From the IMG/VR virus record IMGVR_UViG_3300037445_000008, positions 1-18,330 of that record: DNA of 18,330 bases; one strand, given 5' to 3'. Below the pieces are notes generated by a model. That model worked only from the letters and a program-made list of their open reading frames with translations. It was not told where the DNA came from and ran no database searches. Numbering within the stretch: the first letter of the stretch is position 1; each line of letters opens with the position of its first letter. This DNA comes from a virus. Of this stretch, positions 1 through 18,330 are shown in pieces. A program made the position numbers and the translations under genes.

Positions 1-127
1 ATTTCGTCCTCGGTCATTTGGCACCATTGCCCTCACCACAATAGCAAACGGCACCAAATGACACAACAGGTATGCGGTAAACTGTCCCTTGCATGTGGCT
101 AGCATCACCGTCCTTTCCCAAACGCCA
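1..127. repeat. Left copy of an exact 127-bp terminal duplication (identical to 18204..18330)
   Basis: 1-127 (atttcgtcctcggtcatttggcacc...tttcccaaacgcca) matches 18204-18330 base for base. The boundary falls inside the HNH ORF (codon 6), so it looks like an arbitrary breakpoint of a circular or permuted molecule. Confidence 0.95.
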
Positions 128-172
128 AGTAACACGCGAAATAGATCAACAGCAGGAAGAGCAGCGTATCCA

Positions 173-454
173 TCATGCGACACCCAATTCCGAGATATCG
201 TTGGTCTGGCGAATACAGAACTGCACATAGCTCAGCATGTAATCACGCGCCTGCTGGCCGCTCTCCGCTTCCGTGAGCAACAGCATCCTGTGATCACGGA
301 TGTAGCACTGGACGAAATGATTATGGTTGGTGATGCGCCGCCAGCCGCCAAGCCCGTATTGCTCTAGCTGCGGTGCGAACAGGTCGGTGGCCGGCTTGCC
401 GTCCTCATCCAGGGCGCGGATTTCGTCGTCTTCAAAGTTCCATCGATACTTCAT
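173..454 (-). CDS. Hypothetical protein, 93 aa, last gene of the array
   Basis: The ATG at 454 forms an ATGA overlap with the stop of the upstream ORF. Third codon positions are GC-rich like the backbone and composition is balanced. No TM segment and no motif I recognise. Confidence 0.6.
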   Translation of the reverse strand: MKYRWNFEDDEIRALDEDGKPATDLFAPQLEQYGLGGWRRITNHNHFVQCYIRDHRMLLLTEAESGQQARDYMLSYVQFCIRQTNDISELGVA

Positions 455-2182: not shown

Positions 2183-2893
2183 CTAAATCAGCATCTTGAA
2201 GATGTTGCCGATAGAGCCAAGCACCATGTGCTTCAACGGGTTTTGGCCGGCCATCATGTCCTTCATGAACTGGTCGCCCGTCCAGCCTTGCTGCATCGTT
2301 GACATGGCGTCCTGCATTGGCTTGAATTTCTGGCCGAGGATGTCCATTGGCGCAAAGCCATCCCCTGGCTGTGTCTGTGCCAGCGGTGGCAGCATGGAAT
2401 TAGGTGGCGACAGCAGGGACGGAGCACCGCTGCTGCCGCCGGGGGCCGGTTGCATCAGCGCCTGTTGACCGGACTGAGGCACCGGATTGGTGACATTGTT
2501 GCCAGCGTATTCGAAATGCATCGGGTCGGGTCGGCCCTTCCAGTTGCCGCCCCACTCCAGACCATGGCGCTGTGCCAGCTCTGCAACGTTGCTGGGAAGG
2601 TCCGTCGAGCCGCCGAGCGGGTTGGTGGCAGCATTGATGTCAATCGCCGTGCCAAAGGCGTGTTGCGACAGCTTGTCGGAACCACGAATGTTGCGGTAAT
2701 TGAAGCCGCCAGAGGATTGTACGGGATAGCCAGTCGCTGCCAGGTCTTTGAGGAAGCCGACGAACGCGCCAGCCGCCGGCCCATAGACGCTAAAACGCTG
2801 GCCGGGGACTGGCTCAATCTCCGTCAGGTTTTTTTTCCGCCATTCCGGGTCGGATGGATCGCCCAAACGCCCGATTGTTCCCCAATTGGCCAT
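2183..2893 (-). CDS. Peptidase M15 (VanY/Hedgehog-type Zn D,D- or L,D-peptidase) with a low-complexity C-terminal extension, 236 aa
   Basis: SQHAFGTAIDIN (His-x6-Asp) and GRPDPMHFEY (second His) form the M15 zinc signature. The C-terminal ~100 aa are Pro/Gln/Met-rich and end in a hydrophobic/amphipathic tail (HMVLGSIGNIFKMLI). Confidence 0.8.
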   Translation of the reverse strand: MANWGTIGRLGDPSDPEWRKKNLTEIEPVPGQRFSVYGPAAGAFVGFLKDLAATGYPVQSSGGFNYRNIRGSDKLSQHAFGTAIDINAATNPLGGSTDLPSNVAELAQRHGLEWGGNWKGRPDPMHFEYAGNNVTNPVPQSGQQALMQPAPGGSSGAPSLLSPPNSMLPPLAQTQPGDGFAPMDILGQKFKPMQDAMSTMQQGWTGDQFMKDMMAGQNPLKHMVLGSIGNIFKMLI

Positions 2894-2920
2894 AGATTAG
2901 TCGCCCTGTCGTCAGGTTAA

Positions 2921-2940
2921 CCCATTCTATAGCCTCTTGA
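2921..2940. repeat. Downstream copy of an imperfect direct repeat (cccattcta-N3-cctcttga) flanking the winged-helix gene
   Basis: On the minus strand it reads TCAAGAGG-cta-TAGAATGGG and heads a 2-codon remnant, ATG GGT TAA. The partner at 3425-3446 reads TCAAGAGG-ggaat-TAGAATGGG and is the real RBS plus start of the 155-aa ORF. Confidence 0.75.
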
Positions 2941-2961
2941 TTCCGCTGAATAGTCTGGCGG

Positions 2962-3429
2962 CTAGCCCTGTATCGCCAAAATCATCGCGATATGCTCCTC
3001 AGAGCGGCCTTGTCCACGTAAATCCTCGACTGTCCACCGTCTTTTTTTATAAAGATCCGTCTTAGATACGCAAACCGTTGCATGTACAGAATGGCTTTGG
3101 AGAGGTTTACGCGGCTTACGTGTAGTCACCTCATTATACCACGCCATTAGGTTGCGCCAGTTTCCTTGCAGCAAGAAATAGCTGCTGGCGCAGCGGTAAG
3201 CTTTCTTCCCAATTGTGCGATAATTATACTTCCACGCGATTAATCCAGCCTGTCGGAGTCTTTCAAGGCTTGATTGCAGCGTTCTGAGAGAACAGCCACA
3301 CCACTCCGCCAATGTAAGCTGGCTAATGGTAAGTTTACCCATGCGTAATAGTTTTATGCCGCGTTCCCTAAGGATAGCCATTACTTGGTAGTCGCGGGTT
3401 AATAACTTTACGGATTTGTAATGTCCCAT
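2962..3429 (-). CDS. Winged-helix/HTH DNA-binding protein (HTH_36-like, Rep/repressor-type), 155 aa, in a low-GC cassette
   Basis: ISQLTLAEWCGCSLRTLQSSLERLRQAGLI fits the S..tLAe..g.S.rTv.r.l..Le..Gli winged-helix pattern of phage/plasmid Rep- and repressor-like proteins. A second HTH-like stretch lies at the C-terminus (VEDLRGQGRSEEHIAMILAI). Strong SD (AGAGGGGA) sits 6-7 nt before the ATG. Hand counts on four 60-nt lines give 43-50% GC, against 65% for one neighbouring structural-gene line (4441-4500). A 155-codon ORF is unlikely by chance at that GC. Confidence 0.7.
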   Translation of the reverse strand: MGHYKSVKLLTRDYQVMAILRERGIKLLRMGKLTISQLTLAEWCGCSLRTLQSSLERLRQAGLIAWKYNYRTIGKKAYRCASSYFLLQGNWRNLMAWYNEVTTRKPRKPLQSHSVHATVCVSKTDLYKKRRWTVEDLRGQGRSEEHIAMILAIQG

Positions 3430-3446
3430 TCTAATTCCCCTCTTGA
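3425..3446. repeat. Upstream copy of the imperfect direct repeat (cccattcta-N5-cctcttga)
   Basis: Shares a 9-mer plus an 8-mer in the same order and orientation with 2921-2940. It contains the start codon and SD of the winged-helix gene. Confidence 0.75.
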
Positions 3447-3454
3447 CAGGGGAA
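3435..3454. promoter_or_regulatory. Perfect 7-bp inverted repeat (ttcccct-N6-aggggaa): SD-sequestering hairpin and/or operator
   Basis: In minus-strand RNA it reads uuccccu-gucaag-aggggaa, and the 3' arm is the SD of the winged-helix gene. On the plus strand the loop and arm spell TTGACA (3443-3448). Confidence 0.45.
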
Positions 3455-3472
3455 ACGCAAATCGATCATACA
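3443..3472 (+). promoter_or_regulatory. Candidate plus-strand sigma70-type promoter (TTGACA-N17/18-TCATAC/CATACA)
   Basis: Perfect -35 hexamer at 3443-3448 but only a weak -10 (3466-3472). A minus-strand TATGAT (3465-3470) overlaps it and could be the -10 of a divergent promoter for the winged-helix gene, though no good -35 accompanies it. Confidence 0.3.
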
Positions 3473-3477
3473 GTTAC

Positions 3478-3591
3478 TATGACCTTCGATGCGTACCCTC
3501 GTGTCTTTTGCTCTGGTCATCGCGCTTAGGGACTAGCCGGTCCGCTAAGCACTCATTAGGCCCGCCGTGGTGACATGGCGGGCCTTTTGTT
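3478..3591 (+). ncRNA. Candidate ~110-nt structured small RNA (orientation inferred from the terminator)
   Basis: The interval runs from the predicted TSS to a plus-strand terminator. It contains a 6-bp closing stem (3479-3484/3515-3520), a 10-bp bulged hairpin (3524-3533/3540-3550) and the terminator hairpin. There is no plus-strand ORF here except a 16-codon micro-ORF. Confidence 0.35.
3558..3591 (+). terminator. Rho-independent terminator, plus-strand orientation
   Basis: ggcccgccgtg-GTGA-catggcgggcc forms an 11-bp stem (one G.U) with a GNRA-type tetraloop, followed by TTTTGTT on the plus strand. On the minus strand the hairpin is followed by uaaugagugc, with no U-tract. It abuts the TAA stop (3590-3592) of the 574-aa gene. 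Confidence 0.6.
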
Positions 3592-5314
3592 ATCGTCCCA
3601 TTAATTGGTTAAGAATTCCCATCGTGCTGCCGCCAACCAGGCCAGCACCAGCCGTATTCAGTCCCAGGTTGGCAAGAGCGCCGGCTGTGCGCACACCTGT
3701 CATCGGTATTCCGTTTTCGTCGCGGTTCATCACGTCCAGCAGGTCGAAGGCACGCCGCGCCGGCCCGTTGTTGCGCGGCCCCAGGTGGCCAAATCCGCCG
3801 GATCGCGGATCGCGTTTCATCGCATTGATCAGCGTTCTGGGGTTCACGTCGCCGGCATTGCTAGTGGCACCCACTTTCTTGACCATGCCATAGACTTGCC
3901 ATTGCTCGCGCGCCTGCGCCCAACGCTGCGCAAATGTGCGGTCTCCCTGTTCCGCCGCTTTCTTCGAAATGAAATCGTCCAGCTTTTCCAGCGCCTGACG
4001 CATCAAATCGCCCTGCGAAACGGTTCCCGGCTTGTCGTAAAACCCAGCCATCAGGTCGGCCATCGTCGAGCGCGCCCGCATGATGGTTTCACCGCCGATT
4101 TCGCCGCCATGCGCCTCCAAATTGCGAATAGCGCCGTCTATCTCTTTCTGTGCCTGGCCCTTGTCGAAGACGTTGAATTTCTGCTGCAATGTCTTGAACA
4201 GGTCGGCATATTCCTGTGCCTGGCCGCGCGGCATCTGCTGTCCGGCATTTTCGAAGACCGTTTTCAGGTTTTCGCCGGCCTGGCCAATCGTGTGACTGTC
4301 CAACACCTTTGCATCTGGCACGGTCATCGCCTCGCCAACGGTCTTTGCCGCAAGCTCCTGGTTCGCCGCCTTGTCGGCGGCCACGTTCATCTGTCCCCAT
4401 GGCGTGGTGTCGTTGACGCCTGACAGCCAGCGCGGGATAGAGCCGCTGCGCGTGTCTGCGTGGCTGGGTGAGCGATAGCCTATATCCTCGACCCTCTGCC
4501 GCTGCGCCAGTCCGGCGTTGCTTGCTGCCTCACCGCTCGCGCCCGCCGCCTCCATTTCCGCATACGGATCTGGCGGCGCGTTCGGATTGCGCGCAGCACC
4601 CGCGCTGCCCGCGCCTTGATCAGCCGCCGCACCACCGCCACCAGGCACGGCATTGCCCTGGCTATCGACCGTGAAATCTGCGCCGCCAGCACCGCCTTCG
4701 GCCTGTGACGCCTCGAAGGCGGCGCGGTCAGCGGCATTCTGTATTCGCTGACCGCCCACCTCAACGCCGCGCGCTACGCTCGCCGCGTTCCTGGTCGCTA
4801 TCGTCTCTCCTACCTTCAAAGCCGCCGTCACCCCTTTTACCGCCGCTTCATTCAATCCGACGCCCGTCGCACCGAGCGCGCCGCCAATCAGCGCATTCTG
4901 CACGCGCTCTTCAATCGTCCCTGGCCTGACAAAGCCAGACAGCGCGCCACCCGCAGCACCGCCCGCCAGCATGGCCGGCACTGACATGCCCCCGGTAAAA
5001 GGCGTCAGCGCCAAGCCAGCGGCCACGTCGGGAAGCCCCTCGCCAATCGCCTCTGTCCAGGGTGCAGCGCGACTCGCCGCTTCCTTCTGTAGATTGAGAA
5101 CCTTGATCCGAGCTTGTATCTGTGGATCGTTCGGCTGCGCCAGTTGCTCAATGCCAAGGCCGATATCCTGCGCCCCACGGCCAAAGGCGCGCGCCAGATT
5201 GCCAGGGACAGAGCCTTGCGCCATCGCCGGATCGACGCCCACCCACTTGCCGGCCTCCGTGTCCCAGCCCCAGGCACCACCACCCTCATGCGGAACGATC
5301 TGGGTAATTGGCAT
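3590..5314 (-). CDS. Internal virion / DNA-ejection-type protein, Gly/Ala-rich, 574 aa
   Basis: The preferred start is ATG at 5314, preceded by GGAGG 5 nt upstream and just after the TAG stop (5317-5319) of the upstream gene. The N-terminal half has glycine-zipper-like hydrophobic stretches (GGMSVPAMLAGGAAGGALSG, LIGGALGATGVGL) and the C-terminus is Gly-rich. It is the last and largest of three low-complexity genes after the tail genes. Function is inferred from position and composition only. Confidence 0.5.
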   Translation of the reverse strand: MPITQIVPHEGGGAWGWDTEAGKWVGVDPAMAQGSVPGNLARAFGRGAQDIGLGIEQLAQPNDPQIQARIKVLNLQKEAASRAAPWTEAIGEGLPDVAAGLALTPFTGGMSVPAMLAGGAAGGALSGFVRPGTIEERVQNALIGGALGATGVGLNEAAVKGVTAALKVGETIATRNAASVARGVEVGGQRIQNAADRAAFEASQAEGGAGGADFTVDSQGNAVPGGGGAAADQGAGSAGAARNPNAPPDPYAEMEAAGASGEAASNAGLAQRQRVEDIGYRSPSHADTRSGSIPRWLSGVNDTTPWGQMNVAADKAANQELAAKTVGEAMTVPDAKVLDSHTIGQAGENLKTVFENAGQQMPRGQAQEYADLFKTLQQKFNVFDKGQAQKEIDGAIRNLEAHGGEIGGETIMRARSTMADLMAGFYDKPGTVSQGDLMRQALEKLDDFISKKAAEQGDRTFAQRWAQAREQWQVYGMVKKVGATSNAGDVNPRTLINAMKRDPRSGGFGHLGPRNNGPARRAFDLLDVMNRDENGIPMTGVRTAGALANLGLNTAGAGLVGGSTMGILNQLMGR

Positions 5315-5316
5315 GG

Positions 5317-6444
5317 CTACCTCCATGCTCGCGTGCGGGCTGGACGGCCACCAGGCGTGTCAAGCAGGCCGGTTCCGGGCTTCTGTGGCGTCGGCTGGCC
5401 ACGCTCCCAGCGCTCGCGCCGTGGTGCCGGCTGATTGTCGTTCTCGCCATAGCCTGGAGGAGCATCTTTCGGCGGCGGTGATGTCGGGCGCAGGTTGCTG
5501 CCCTCAATGCTCGACGGCACCTGATCCAGCGGAATGCCCCACTTGCCCGACGCCGCCTGCGCCCTTGACGCATAAAGCTTCGCCTGAATTTGTAGCTGCG
5601 TCGCCTTGGTCTTCAACAGATCCGGCGTCCAATGCGTTTCGTTCGGAATGACGCTATCAATAAATTCCTGCAAGCCGGCGTCAAAGGTGCCCTTGCCCTT
5701 CATCACGTCCTCGACCACCGAGCCGCGCACCGCGTTCCAAACGCCCTGATCGAATGGCACCTTGCCGCTCGCCATATCCGCCAGCGTTGTCACCGCGTCG
5801 GCGCTGTTCTTTAATGGCGAAATCTCGTCAAATCCCTTGATCCACGTCGGACTGCCACGGATGATCTGCGTTTGCAGCATCCCGGTCTTCTGATCAACGC
5901 CGGTAAACATCGAGTCCTGCGGCGGCTTGATCCCCATCTTATCCATCGCCGCCGTGGTGCCCAACGCTCCCGGCAGCGACAGCAGATATTGATAGCCTTT
6001 CTGCGTATCCTCCATGTCGCGATTGCGCTTAATCTGATCCATCCGCAACTGATCGTCATAGGTAATTTTCATGCGCTCGCGCGTTAACTGATCGTCAAAG
6101 ATCGTCGCCTGCTTTTGTATGCCAGCGGCTTTATCCTGGCTTTGCGACTGATACATCGCCCCGATCTGCTGCGAGAGCAGATTGTTGCCCATCTGCGAAA
6201 AATCCGGCTGCATCTTCGCCCACAGCGCCATTTGCGCCTTGCTCTGCGCATCGGGATTGGTTGCCAGGTATTCCGGCGACGTCAGCAGGCCGGTCGCCGC
6301 CTGACCAACACGCTGGCGTTCCGCCGCCTGCATGTTGATGGCATCGCGCTGTCCCAGCCAGTTGCTGGCATAGCTGCGGCCACCCAACAACATACCGAGG
6401 ATGTTGAAATTCGACTGGCCTTGTGCCGGATCAAGAATGCCCAT
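5317..6444 (-). CDS. Internal virion-type protein, 375 aa
   Basis: ATG at 6444. Gln/Met-rich helical N-terminal half and a Pro/Arg/Gly-rich C-terminal tail. It sits between two other low-complexity genes. No enzymatic motif recognised. Confidence 0.45.
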   Translation of the reverse strand: MGILDPAQGQSNFNILGMLLGGRSYASNWLGQRDAINMQAAERQRVGQAATGLLTSPEYLATNPDAQSKAQMALWAKMQPDFSQMGNNLLSQQIGAMYQSQSQDKAAGIQKQATIFDDQLTRERMKITYDDQLRMDQIKRNRDMEDTQKGYQYLLSLPGALGTTAAMDKMGIKPPQDSMFTGVDQKTGMLQTQIIRGSPTWIKGFDEISPLKNSADAVTTLADMASGKVPFDQGVWNAVRGSVVEDVMKGKGTFDAGLQEFIDSVIPNETHWTPDLLKTKATQLQIQAKLYASRAQAASGKWGIPLDQVPSSIEGSNLRPTSPPPKDAPPGYGENDNQPAPRRERWERGQPTPQKPGTGLLDTPGGRPARTRAWR

Positions 6445-7212: not shown

Positions 7213-7722
7213 TCAATTCAGATGCTTGATCAGCCCCAGCCGGATTGTCGGCTGGTCCTCGCAAATATAGCCGTCCTCATCCATCTCCATGCCCATGCGC
7301 TTGATCAGCCGCGACCAGCCGCGCCGGCCCACCACCCTGAGATACCCAGGCGCATTGGTGCCCATAATCCGCTTGTGATCCTGCATACTGGTGTAGAGAT
7401 AAAACGCCAGTTCAGACAGCAATTGCCCCGACAATTCACCGGTATAATACAGCACCGAAAACACCGGCCCGCCGGTTTCGGGATGGTGCATCAGTTCAAT
7501 GCCGAAATGCGTCTCGTTGTCGCCATGCTCGACGATGAACGGCACCACATGGCCGCTCCGAACGTCGGTGGCGAAATCCCAATAGGTCTTGTAATAGCCG
7601 TCGCCGCCGACGCAGAACGCCGCAAAGCATTCGCGCAGCGACAGGTGATCGGCGTCACTGGGTACGCCCAGGAACCGATAGAGCGGCCTATAGCTTGGTC
7701 CAGGTGCCACCGTGGAATTCAT
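7213..7722 (-). CDS. Hypothetical virion-module protein, 169 aa
   Basis: The preferred start is ATG at 7722 with AAGAGGG 5 nt upstream, giving a 35-nt overlap with the upstream gene. The longer form from 7848 would overlap 7688..7978 by 161 nt and adds an Arg/Trp-rich N-terminus. Confidence 0.5.
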   Translation of the reverse strand: MNSTVAPGPSYRPLYRFLGVPSDADHLSLRECFAAFCVGGDGYYKTYWDFATDVRSGHVVPFIVEHGDNETHFGIELMHHPETGGPVFSVLYYTGELSGQLLSELAFYLYTSMQDHKRIMGTNAPGYLRVVGRRGWSRLIKRMGMEMDEDGYICEDQPTIRLGLIKHLN

Positions 7723-11052: not shown

Positions 11053-11132
11053 CCTACGGCTTCCCTGGCGGTATCGCGGTCAGATAGAGCGGCGGCGTTC
11101 CAGGCTTGCCATGCCACTGGATCAATCCGCCC

Positions 11133-11282
11133 TTACTTATCCTGTTTGGCGCTCTTCCGATCATCATAGGGAATATCCTTGTCTTCGGCTTGCTTGTAGA
11201 GATCATCTATCGCTTTAAGTTCAAGCTCCAACTGCTTGATTTGATCGGTGATTTGCTTTTTCATTTCTTCCTTGCTTGCCAT
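11133..11282 (-). CDS. Small coiled-coil protein, 49 aa, in a low-GC patch
   Basis: ATG at 11282 with GGGAG 9 nt upstream. MASKEEMKKQITDQIKQLELELKAIDDLYKQAEDK has heptad character. Hand-counted GC is 40-42% on two 60-nt lines. The antisense frame (11106..11384 +) is also open, so strand assignment rests on the RBS and operon context. Confidence 0.45.
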   Translation of the reverse strand: MASKEEMKKQITDQIKQLELELKAIDDLYKQAEDKDIPYDDRKSAKQDK

Positions 11283-11323
11283 GGCTTTGTACTCCCGTAT
11301 CAGCCATTCAGTGATGAAATATC

Positions 11324-11539
11324 TCATCCCGCACAATGCGACGGTGGAAACGGTGCCGCCTTGTTGGCAACACCGTTGTTGTAGGCCGCGAGCGCGGTCG
11401 GATCACCGCTCAGTTGCACCACCGCGCCGCGATAGCCTTCGGCATACGCCTTTGCGAGCTTGCTGAACGGCGAAATCGCCCTGTTGGCGGCGGTCGGGGA
11501 GACATATGCCAGGTAGTCGATGTGCAGTTTTCCGGCCAT
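11324..11539 (-). CDS. Hypothetical head-module protein, 71 aa
   Basis: The preferred start is ATG at 11539 (GGAG 6 nt upstream, 1 nt after the upstream TGA). The ORF track's longer form uses TTG at 11551. Confidence 0.5.
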   Translation of the reverse strand: MAGKLHIDYLAYVSPTAANRAISPFSKLAKAYAEGYRGAVVQLSGDPTALAAYNNGVANKAAPFPPSHCAG

Positions 11540-17327: not shown

Positions 17328-17528
17328 TCATTTCTCAATCCCCATCAGCAGGCGCACATCCCGCGAAATTCTAGCCGCCACCTCTTGATAATAGACCGCA
17401 TCTTGCAGCCACTCATTCGGATCAAAGCCATCTTTTGCCGCTTGCTTTGCTTGCTCACGGCATCCCATCGCCATCATGTATCTTTGTGCCGCCTGCGTCT
17501 GCACCACCACTTTCGGATCATCACTCAT
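17328..17528 (-). CDS. Hypothetical protein, 66 aa (possible small-terminase component by position)
   Basis: ATGA-coupled to the upstream HTH gene and ends 6 nt before terL. Helical, with no motif recognised. Confidence 0.5.
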   Translation of the reverse strand: MSDDPKVVVQTQAAQRYMMAMGCREQAKQAAKDGFDPNEWLQDAVYYQEVAARISRDVRLLMGIEK

Positions 17529-17879: not shown

Positions 17880-18220
17880 GCTTCACCTCGTTTCGTGAAG
17901 CCACGGCTTCTCATCTTGAACTTACTCGCTGGCCAGGTGCCGTTGTGCTTGGCTTCCACCCGCTTGACCTTGGCAATCATGGCCGCATCATCAGCCGTCT
18001 TGCCACCCTCGCCGCGATGGCAGGGAATGCACACCACCTGGCAATTGCCGACTGTGCTGTCACGCGTCAGAAAGTAAGGGATGATGTGATCAAACTCGTA
18101 TTTGTGGATACCAGCGTGCAGCACCGCGCCGCAGATCTCGCAGAAGTTCTTGCAGCGCTCGAAAGCCTGCTGTCGCACCTTCATCGTGAACTCGTCTCTA
18201 CTCATTTCGTCCTCGGTCAT
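17876..18220 (-). CDS. HNH endonuclease, 114 aa
   Basis: CEIC...FDHIIP...VGNCQVVCIPCH gives a CxxC/CxxC zinc knuckle plus the H-N-H catalytic residues. It lies upstream of the terminase genes, as in HNH-dependent cos-packaging phages. Confidence 0.85.
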   Translation of the reverse strand: MTEDEMSRDEFTMKVRQQAFERCKNFCEICGAVLHAGIHKYEFDHIIPYFLTRDSTVGNCQVVCIPCHRGEGGKTADDAAMIAKVKRVEAKHNGTWPASKFKMRSRGFTKRGEA

Positions 18221-18330
18221 TTGGCACCATTGCCCTCACCACAATAGCAAACGGCACCAAATGACACAACAGGTATGCGGTAAACTGTCCCTTGCATGTG
18301 GCTAGCATCACCGTCCTTTCCCAAACGCCA
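18204..18330. repeat. Right copy of the exact 127-bp terminal duplication
   Basis: Identical to 1-127. Confidence 0.95.
18241..18269 (-). promoter_or_regulatory. Candidate sigma70-type promoter for the whole minus-strand array (TTGTGT-N17-TATTGT)
   Basis: Minus-strand -35 is at 18264-18269 and -10 at 18241-18246, with a 17-nt spacer. The predicted TSS is ~14 nt before the HNH ATG. It lies in the 155-nt junction region, one of only two non-coding stretches longer than 100 nt, and is duplicated at 38-66. Sequence match only. Confidence 0.3.

Follow-up and report, generated by a model that had tools for sequence, protein, structure and literature searches.

A winged-helix gene in a family of roughly 18-kb podophages and its candidate role in replication

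The IMG/VR virus record IMGVR_UViG_3300037445_000008 (18,330 nucleotides, analysed over its full length and referred to here as the window) carries, among genes for virion proteins, an open reading frame (ORF) of low GC content at 2962..3429 on the minus strand that encodes a 155-aa winged helix-turn-helix (wHTH) protein. An earlier sequence-only reading took this gene for a cassette that had been inserted or replaced by recombination at a translation-initiation motif, leaving a duplicated copy of the motif behind as a scar. The locus raises two questions: whether the wHTH gene came in from elsewhere, and what its product does for the phage. Comparison with related contigs shows a vertically inherited, fast-evolving core gene of an ~18-kb phage family, whose product is most likely a replication initiator or a master DNA-binding regulator.

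The window comprises an entire podophage genome of 18.2 kb that assembles as a circle and has all its genes on one strand. Positions 1-127 are repeated exactly as an assembly overlap at 18204..18330 (no strand assigned), an identity from which we derive a closed circular genome of 18,203 bp; all substantial ORFs lie on the minus strand.

The winged-helix gene and its relatives

The gene has a GC content of 0.472 and a third-position GC (GC3) of 0.50, compared with GC3 values of 0.69-0.83 in all other genes longer than 100 aa and a genome mean GC of 0.588. Windows of 300 nt across 2851-3600 have a GC of 0.47-0.50. The low GC that had been counted by hand is therefore real, and the assignment of a winged-helix product also holds: the protein passes the Pfam threshold for HTH_36 (PF13730) with 27.3 bits against a gathering cut-off of 25 (E 3.3e-6, residues 36-64), and an AlphaFold2 (AF2) model places a helix-turn-helix ahead of a beta-hairpin wing (helices 11-30, 37-44 and 48-61; strands 64-73 and 76-86). 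The predicted local distance difference test (pLDDT) score of this model is 64-84 in the core and 57 on average when 11 sequences are used, and 44 with 3 sequences. Across homologues the layout is kept, with a helix, the wHTH, the wing, a variable linker and a short basic C-terminal tail.

Relatives were collected by protein searches (L001, L002, L052 and L053), through the upstream neighbour of the wHTH gene, which encodes a 578-aa protein (L003, L022, L023 and L024), and with a TerL profile, which yielded about 20 IMG/VR contigs, several of them 17.0-18.9 kb long and of the same layout. The 578-aa gene (3590..5326, minus strand) is the last of the internal-virion or ejection-type genes, is the conserved upstream neighbour of the wHTH gene in the synteny of all relatives, and encodes a protein without a Pfam or PHROG match. 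In all of the ~20 loci that cover the site, a homologous HTH_36 gene of 150-200 aa directly follows the 578-aa homologue, all of the wHTH proteins match HTH_36, and the next gene encodes a peptidoglycan hydrolase. The wHTH protein of L001 is 65% identical to that of the window and sits in the same synteny, while the alleles as a whole comprise at least five very divergent types that are 13-24% identical to the window protein. The location between the internal-virion or ejection genes and the M15 peptidase, as first described, is correct for the window, and a place between the last ejection-protein gene and a peptidoglycan hydrolase gene is a fixed feature of the family, which consists of previously uncultured, roughly 18-kb podophages.

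Neither an empty site nor a presence/absence polymorphism among syntenic relatives was seen in these ~20 loci. Because the gene is present in every relative that covers the site, we do not regard it as a moron or a cassette, and with homologues in place in at least five lineages the scar of an insertion or replacement is not what the locus displays. The cassette-free relatives with one copy of the repeat that the sequence-only reading had predicted were not found. The low GC is common to all five members of the window's lineage (0.47-0.53 in the wHTH gene versus 0.58-0.68 in the neighbouring genes), and as it is shared by proteins that are only 40-65% identical, it appears to be old and maintained rather than the trace of a recent import. 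In the distant lineages, the wHTH gene lies 0-7 GC points below the backbone. Flanking repeats were not conserved as cassette boundaries in the relatives: the upstream TAGAATGGG is unique to the window, and the other lineages lack the repeat. The pattern that the sequence-only reading had set against its own proposal, in which all relatives carry the gene at backbone GC and without flanking repeats, is largely the one observed, with the gene present everywhere and no repeat in distant lineages, although GC is still low in the close relatives. For annotation practice, a sharp GC dip together with short flanking repeats is insufficient to call a cassette, and here the comparative data reversed the call.

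Inside the gene, synonymous-site conservation between the window and L001 is 0.75 versus 0.56-0.62, and deeper pairs are no different. As this signal is marginal, no embedded origin or cis-element is visible in the wHTH ORF. A short basic motif recurs at or close to the C-terminus of highly divergent wHTH alleles (LYKKRRW, LFRNK, LMKQKRWRS and LLKEKRWRS; window 2962-3000, minus strand, from the alignment) and may serve for docking to a conserved host partner. Within its 3' part the ORF also contains a TTGCGT-N16-TATAAA element that faces the hydrolase gene (window 3046-3073, minus strand) and may be an internal promoter or an unwinding element. Its A-run corresponds to the AAA AAA lysine codons of LYKKRRW, and the A-tract is kept in relatives, including the distant L024, despite GC-rich codon usage.

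A bipartite motif and the hairpins that contain it

The motif that prompted the cassette idea has the form TCAAGAGG-N3/5-TAGAATGGG and, as had been reported, occurs as two exact matches on the minus strand, compared with none in 200 shuffles. Copy 1, TCAAGAGG-ggaat-TAGAATGGG (3425..3446, minus strand), overlaps the Shine-Dalgarno (SD) sequence and start codon of the wHTH gene; copy 2, TCAAGAGG-cta-TAGAATGGG (2921..2940, minus strand), lies in the 68 nt that separate the wHTH stop from the start of the M15 hydrolase, where it does head only ATG GGT TAA. The caution that GCAAGAGG also precedes the gene starting at 7722 is correct. Even so, a genome-wide ribosome-binding-site consensus is excluded as the source of the repeat, as other gene starts use varied GAGG, GGAG or GGGG sequences. 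We additionally identified a third copy at 17388-17368 that was absent from the earlier account: TCAAGAGG-tggcggc-TAGAAT (17368..17388, minus strand) is located 47 nt ahead of the TerL start, within the 3' end of a 66-aa ORF that is specific to this genome. The genome contains three exact occurrences each of TCAAGAGG and TAGAAT, all on the minus strand and all paired with one another.

The statistical weight of the motif depends on how the question is put. We estimate that chance alone would give about one bipartite match of 8+9 nt with a flexible gap somewhere in 36 kb; the original pair therefore owes its significance solely to the position of its copies on either side of one gene. Calculated from base composition, the probability of a third copy of the pre-specified motif is ~6e-4, and a generic test for any motif occurring three times was not significant, with 12 of 60 random genomes passing.

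Conservation of the two main copies differs in kind. The TCAAGAGG half of copy 1 is semi-conserved, with TCAAGAGG in L053, GCAAGAGG in L052 and GCAAGGGG in L001, and its TAGAATGGG half is found in the window only, relatives reading GCAGATGGG, CAAAATGTC and GCAAATGGC. The block around copy 2, AAGCGGAATCAAGAGGCT(A/T)TAGAAT(G/A)GGTT, is near-identical in L001 and more conserved than its surroundings, and its TAGAAT is kept in 4/4 close relatives. The full 17-nt identity between copies 1 and 2 exists only in the window genome, and only the downstream copy is conserved in the closest relatives, which does not fit a duplication left by recombination. A GANTC site (GAATC or GATTC; window 2939-2943, minus strand) just upstream of copy 2 is likewise present in 4/4 close relatives, with equivalents in L001, L002 and L053. 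GANTC is the CcrM methylation site of Alphaproteobacteria, and its conservation here is a hint on host and regulation only.

Each of these two copies is embedded in a conserved structure of its own. The wHTH gene is preceded by a 160-nt spacer (3430-3589) that folds far better than shuffled sequences on both strands (z = -4.4 and -4.7), in agreement with the proposal of a structured non-coding region upstream of the gene. In four close relatives, the leader reads TATGnnCGATTTGCGTyyyCCC-loop-GGGrA...ATG. Its start-proximal hairpin, CCCCU-GUCAAG-AGGGG (3437..3452, minus strand), has the SD sequence of the wHTH gene as its 3' arm, and the TCAAGAGG half of copy 1 constitutes the loop and 3' arm of this SD-burying structure. 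The stem shows compensatory changes, pairing CCCCU with AGGGG in the window, CCCC with GGGG in L001, CUUCCC with GGGAAG in L052 and UUUCC with GGAAA in L053, and it looks as though translation of the wHTH gene is throttled by this hairpin. Similarly, the 5' untranslated region (UTR) of the hydrolase gene forms a hairpin (2892..2925, minus strand) in which AUGGGUU, part of copy 2, pairs with AAUCUAU, including the AU of the M15 start codon. Compensatory changes are again found, with AUAGGUU/AACCUAU in L001 and pairs of the AUGGCUU/AAGCCAU type in L002 and L053, so that the conserved hairpin covering the hydrolase start codon has copy 2 as its 5' arm. Because copies 1 and 2 are thus parts of two separately conserved translation-initiation hairpins, we do not interpret the repeat as a recombination scar.

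Two other accounts of the bases at copy 2 were considered and set aside. ATG-GGT-TAA as a mini-ORF is present in the window, L002, L053 and L047, but L001 has ATA, and the hairpin model explains the same bases. A long-range pairing of copy 2 with the segment coding for RKPRKPL, suggested by L001, involves segments that are not nested in the window, and the consensus fold does not contain it.

Further upstream in the wHTH leader, the box CGATTTGCG (3456..3464, minus strand) is invariant in four close relatives, and its core GATTTGC recurs at the same leader position in distant lineages; the box is not repeated elsewhere in the genome above chance. A second leader hairpin, GCUUAG...CUAAGC (3524..3550, minus strand), has compensatory changes in its inner stem. 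A GC-rich terminator hairpin of 12 bp (3558..3585, no strand assigned) follows just after the stop of the 578-aa gene and is the best terminator-like site in the window, with two pairs that show compensatory changes. Its T-run is on the plus strand only in the window, opposite to all genes, and is on both sides, giving a bidirectional arrangement, in most relatives. The wHTH gene is the first gene after this, the strongest terminator in the genome. No Rfam match to the leader was obtained at E <= 1.

No promoter was recognised in this region. A scan of the intergenic regions for sigma-70 promoters yielded none, with 3 sites against 7.3 expected, and no manual arrangement of -35 and -10 elements around TATGAT, TAGAAT or the antisense TTGACA is kept in relatives. 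A perfect TTGACA is present at 3443-3448 on the plus strand, ~110 nt upstream of the terminator, with a poor -10; it is missing in L001 and L052, and no antisense promoter opposite the wHTH leader is conserved in the relatives. An antisense RNA of ~110 nt opposite the leader is conceivable from this arrangement.

Candidate functions of the winged-helix protein

Pfam and PHROG scans of the 18.2-kb genome identified no recognisable polymerase, primase, helicase, helicase loader, recombinase or integrase. Because the genome must replicate and has no other candidate, we consider the wHTH protein as a minimal, translationally throttled replication initiator that would bind the origin and depend on the host replisome, a reading to which we assign a probability of roughly 0.45. 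A replication initiator had been one of several options listed in the sequence-only reading and is now the best supported, on the strength of a family-wide PHROG scan of 18 wHTH family members. The commonest matches were to PHROG 8102 (replication initiation protein; 12/18 members, best E 2e-7), PHROG 270 (replication initiation protein; 11/18, best E 3e-8), PHROGs 678 and 391 (replication initiation O-like; 10/18 each, best E 4.6e-7 and 2.8e-6, respectively) and PHROG 186 (DnaD-like helicase loader; 6/18, best E 5.2e-6). The transcriptional regulator PHROGs 2030 and 1368 matched 2/18 members each (best E 1.4e-5 and 1.9e-3). The window protein itself matches phrogs 8102, 270 and 1032 at E 1e-3 to 5e-3 over ~50 aligned residues. 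The top Foldseek matches include the DnaD N-domain and RepA_N initiators, with all PDB matches at E >1e-3 and a query model of pLDDT 57, and a distant cellular homologue of the wHTH gene adjoins a ParA gene.

As we envisage it, the wHTH protein would be the only origin-recognition protein of the phage, a pared-down N-terminal origin-binding domain of the lambda-O/DnaD/RepA-type initiators that would bind phage DNA and pass replication on to the replisome of the host. The leader hairpin, together with AT-rich and non-optimal codons, would hold production of the protein down. Candidate binding sites would be the three TCAAGAGG...TAGAAT copies scattered over the genome, with copy 1 placed over the wHTH start codon like the partial iterons of plasmids with HTH_36 Rep proteins. 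This assignment of sites is the weakest step: it is the most economical idea for the three copies, and their variable spacing and lack of conservation count against it. We consider unlikely the stronger proposal in which the single 155-aa protein is the sole replication function, as a plasmid-like module of one Rep and a few dispersed sites set in the virion-gene block and throttled by the SD hairpin, with the TCAAGAGG...TAGAAT sites coupling origin recognition to control of the hydrolase and packaging genes.

Several results weigh against an initiator. Neither tandem iterons nor clustered repeats turned up anywhere in the genome by Tandem Repeats Finder (TRF), k-mer clustering or local repeat searches, and the synonymous sites reveal no embedded origin (0.75 versus 0.56-0.62 for the window and L001, as above). 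The motif spacing varies (3, 5 and 7 nt), copy 1 is degenerate in L001 and copy 3 is missing in L027, in 9 relatives no repeated motif at the wHTH start rose above control, and no other lineage had an analogous motif in common between its wHTH start and further sites. Similarity to initiators is limited to the generic wHTH (about residues 30-80); profile searches of the PDB matched CRP/GntR-type HTH regulators only, and Foldseek searches of the PDB and BFVD returned only generic wHTH matches in which initiators and repressors are mixed. The protein has no C-terminal helicase- or loader-binding domain, its C-terminal tail is unmatched, and the 18.2-kb genome has no partner gene. Finally, tblastn produced no match to PLSDB plasmids (72,556; cut-offs of E < 0.1 with the window protein and E < 0.01 with P0015) or to INPHARED phages.

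The main alternative is an autoregulated transcription factor, an early-to-late switch or repressor that would bind TCAAGAGG...TAGAAT at its own start and upstream of the hydrolase/lysis and TerL/structural genes and so time their expression, with replication proceeding without a phage protein, for example by host DnaA or transcription-primed initiation. Each of these three gene-block starts, and no other place, has one of the motif copies, TAGAAT makes a good -10-like hexamer accompanied by a poor -35, as in factor-dependent promoters, and the gene is promoter-proximal, after the main terminator. Sequence matches in the PDB are to CRP/NtcA/GntR-type regulators, and the BFVD matches include wHTH repressors. 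We nevertheless judge this account less probable than an initiator: the motif is genome-specific, being conserved neither in L001 (copy 1) nor in L027 (copy 3), a single rigid binder would not easily accommodate the variable half-site spacing, copy 3 is inside a coding sequence, no promoter was confirmed by the sigma-70 scan, and regulator PHROGs match 2/18 members versus 10-12/18 for initiator PHROGs. It is less probable still that the repeat has no common function at all, and that two independently constrained translation-initiation hairpins, each with an SD-like AAGAGG, an A-rich spacer and AUGG, match over 17 nt by chance, the third copy being either coincidental or the product of a small local duplication. 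For each half of each copy there is a separate structural explanation with covariation, the full match is unique to the window, and both the ~1 flexible-gap 8+9 match expected per genome and the 20% of random genomes with generic triple motifs allow for coincidence; counting against it are the pairing of all three TCAAGAGG with all three TAGAAT on the same strand, the ~6e-4 probability of a third pre-specified copy and the greater conservation of copy 2 than its surroundings.

Least probable by far is the original proposal of a horizontally acquired single-gene cassette, an immunity or superinfection factor recombined at a translation-initiation motif in the manner of P22 immI. The compositional anomaly is strong (GC3 0.50 versus 0.69-0.83), a 17-nt bipartite repeat does bracket the gene, and the third motif copy lies in another ORF that is low in GC and specific to this genome (17328-17528). 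The family also shows recombination with a breakpoint precisely at a start-codon motif, but in the adjacent hydrolase gene. The wHTH gene is at this site in all relatives, across at least five divergent lineages and with no empty site, its low GC is common to five close relatives with proteins 40-65% identical and appears old and maintained, and the upstream repeat half is not conserved even in L001. As in P22 immI (mnt-arc-ant and sar RNA), a small DNA-binding gene here adjoins a structured non-coding region downstream of podophage ejection genes. Unlike Arc and Mnt, which are ribbon-helix-helix proteins, the protein studied here is a wHTH; Pfam and PHROG scans of window ORFs >60 aa contained neither an Arc/Mnt-type ribbon-helix-helix protein nor an Ant homologue, there is no conserved antisense promoter, and the gene is core rather than accessory. 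We find no support for the immI analogy.

The initiator reading can be set beside two groups of known replication proteins. With lambda O-like and DnaD-like initiators, which supply the commonest PHROG matches across the family (8102, 270, 678, 391 and 186), the wHTH protein shares an HTH_36-type wHTH, a long N-terminal helix, a beta-hairpin wing and a promoter-proximal phage gene. It differs from them in being only 155 aa long without a C-terminal domain that recruits a helicase or loader, in having no adjacent P/DnaC/DnaB-type gene and no iteron array in or beside the gene, and in that only ~50 residues are similar. HTH_36 Rep proteins also drive small alphaproteobacterial plasmids (Paracoccus pAES7, pMARC3, pMOS2 and pAES1), whose oriVs contain just 2 iteron-like repeats, in some cases with a third elsewhere, along with a partial iteron that overlaps the start codon of rep (PMC3832669). 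The window protein shares the HTH_36 domain with these Reps, and the partial repeat over the rep start resembles motif copy 1, with copies 2 and 3 elsewhere. In contrast to the plasmid systems, its motif is bipartite, variably spaced and unconserved in relatives, its gene is located in a virion-gene block rather than a REP module, and no tblastn similarity was detected among the 72,556 plasmids.

Very small tailed phages without recognisable replication genes are known among actinobacteriophages of 14-17 kb, such as Rhodococcus RRH1, Arthrobacter cluster AN and Microbacterium cluster EE; these are siphoviruses in which almost all genes serve structure, packaging and lysis, along with one or a few small HTH proteins and an HNH endonuclease. 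The window has the same mixture of mostly structural, packaging and lysis genes with small HTH proteins and an HNH gene. It differs in being podovirus-type, with 59% GC and an SU10-like portal and capsid. If the wHTH protein is the sole replication or regulatory factor, these ~18-kb genomes would be among the most stripped-down tailed phages outside the phi29 group, with ~16 of 18 kb given to virion, packaging and lysis functions. They would then define a minimal toolkit for replication and regulation, and offer a tractable system for asking which functions a tailed phage must at a minimum provide itself and which the host can supply.

The neighbouring hydrolase and the rest of the genome

The gene that follows the wHTH gene encodes a Peptidase_M15_4 peptidoglycan hydrolase of 236 aa (2183..2893, minus strand; Pfam E 1.9e-17), and it is here that an exchange is visible. 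L003 and L022 share 92% DNA identity through the wHTH gene to 10 nt into the hydrolase ORF (ATGGCAAATT). Past this point ~390 nt are without similarity, encoding an M15_4 catalytic domain in one and a VanY-type domain in the other, and identity resumes in the C-terminal domain (compared over L003:1659-2261 and L022:2212-2826, and also in L034, L037, L029-L031 and L041). Across the family, the hydrolase after the wHTH gene is of the M15_4, VanY-like, CHAP or SLT type, and its start is nearly always ATGGC(C/A)AA, encoding M-A-N. The alignments point to the hydrolase catalytic domain as the exchangeable module of this phage family, with recombination at a translation-initiation motif occurring there and not at the wHTH gene, and suggest a virion-associated lysin with a modular catalytic head. 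The locus provides a clean example of domain-level cassette exchange with its breakpoint exactly at a conserved start-codon motif.

In reading order, Pfam and PHROG scans describe a genome that begins with an HNH endonuclease, a 48-aa ORF, an HTH_17 protein and the 66-aa ORF, and continues with TerL, an SU10-type portal, a scaffold, an SU10-type capsid, an adaptor, and tail and virion proteins. Three ejection-type proteins follow, the last being the 578-aa protein, and then the 155-aa HTH_36 protein, the M15_4 peptidase, two small ORFs, a GH25 lysozyme and three small (holin-like) ORFs, giving two peptidoglycan hydrolases in total. The HNH, HTH_17 and TerL genes are counted as the packaging genes. 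The structural genes match SU10-type rather than P22-type Pfam families. No cultured phage is close, as searches of INPHARED gave no match to the portal that covered 80% of the query, with 24-27% identity among the matches listed, and DNA and protein searches of the same collection gave no relative of the wHTH region or protein. The hydrolase has a 66% nucleotide match to Rhizobium phage RHph_N65, which together with the conserved GANTC sites makes Rhizobiales a first guess for the host. When 185,579 bacterial genomes were scanned with TerL, no prophage copies appeared, and there is thus no evidence of lysogeny.

The 66-aa ORF that carries motif copy 3 (17328-17528, minus strand) lies between the HTH_17 gene and TerL, with a GC of 0.52 and a GC3 of 0.55. 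No homologue was present in any fetched relative, and neither the ORF nor the motif occurs in L027, which has an 84% identical TerL. This ORF is the genome's best candidate for a recent insertion.

Only two intergenic regions exceed 100 nt, the wHTH leader at 3430-3589 (160 nt) and a gap at about 18-172 upstream of the HNH gene. A hydrophobic mini-ORF of 23 codons (MMDTLLFLLLIYFACYLAFGKGR; window 105-176, minus strand) is located in the latter gap, where it overlaps the stop of a 93-aa gene. A second GC dip (0.50) occurs at 11054-11340 on the minus strand, in a small K/E-rich, coiled-coil-like ORF of ~50 aa between a 103-aa gene and the adaptor gene, and is explained by the amino-acid content of that ORF.

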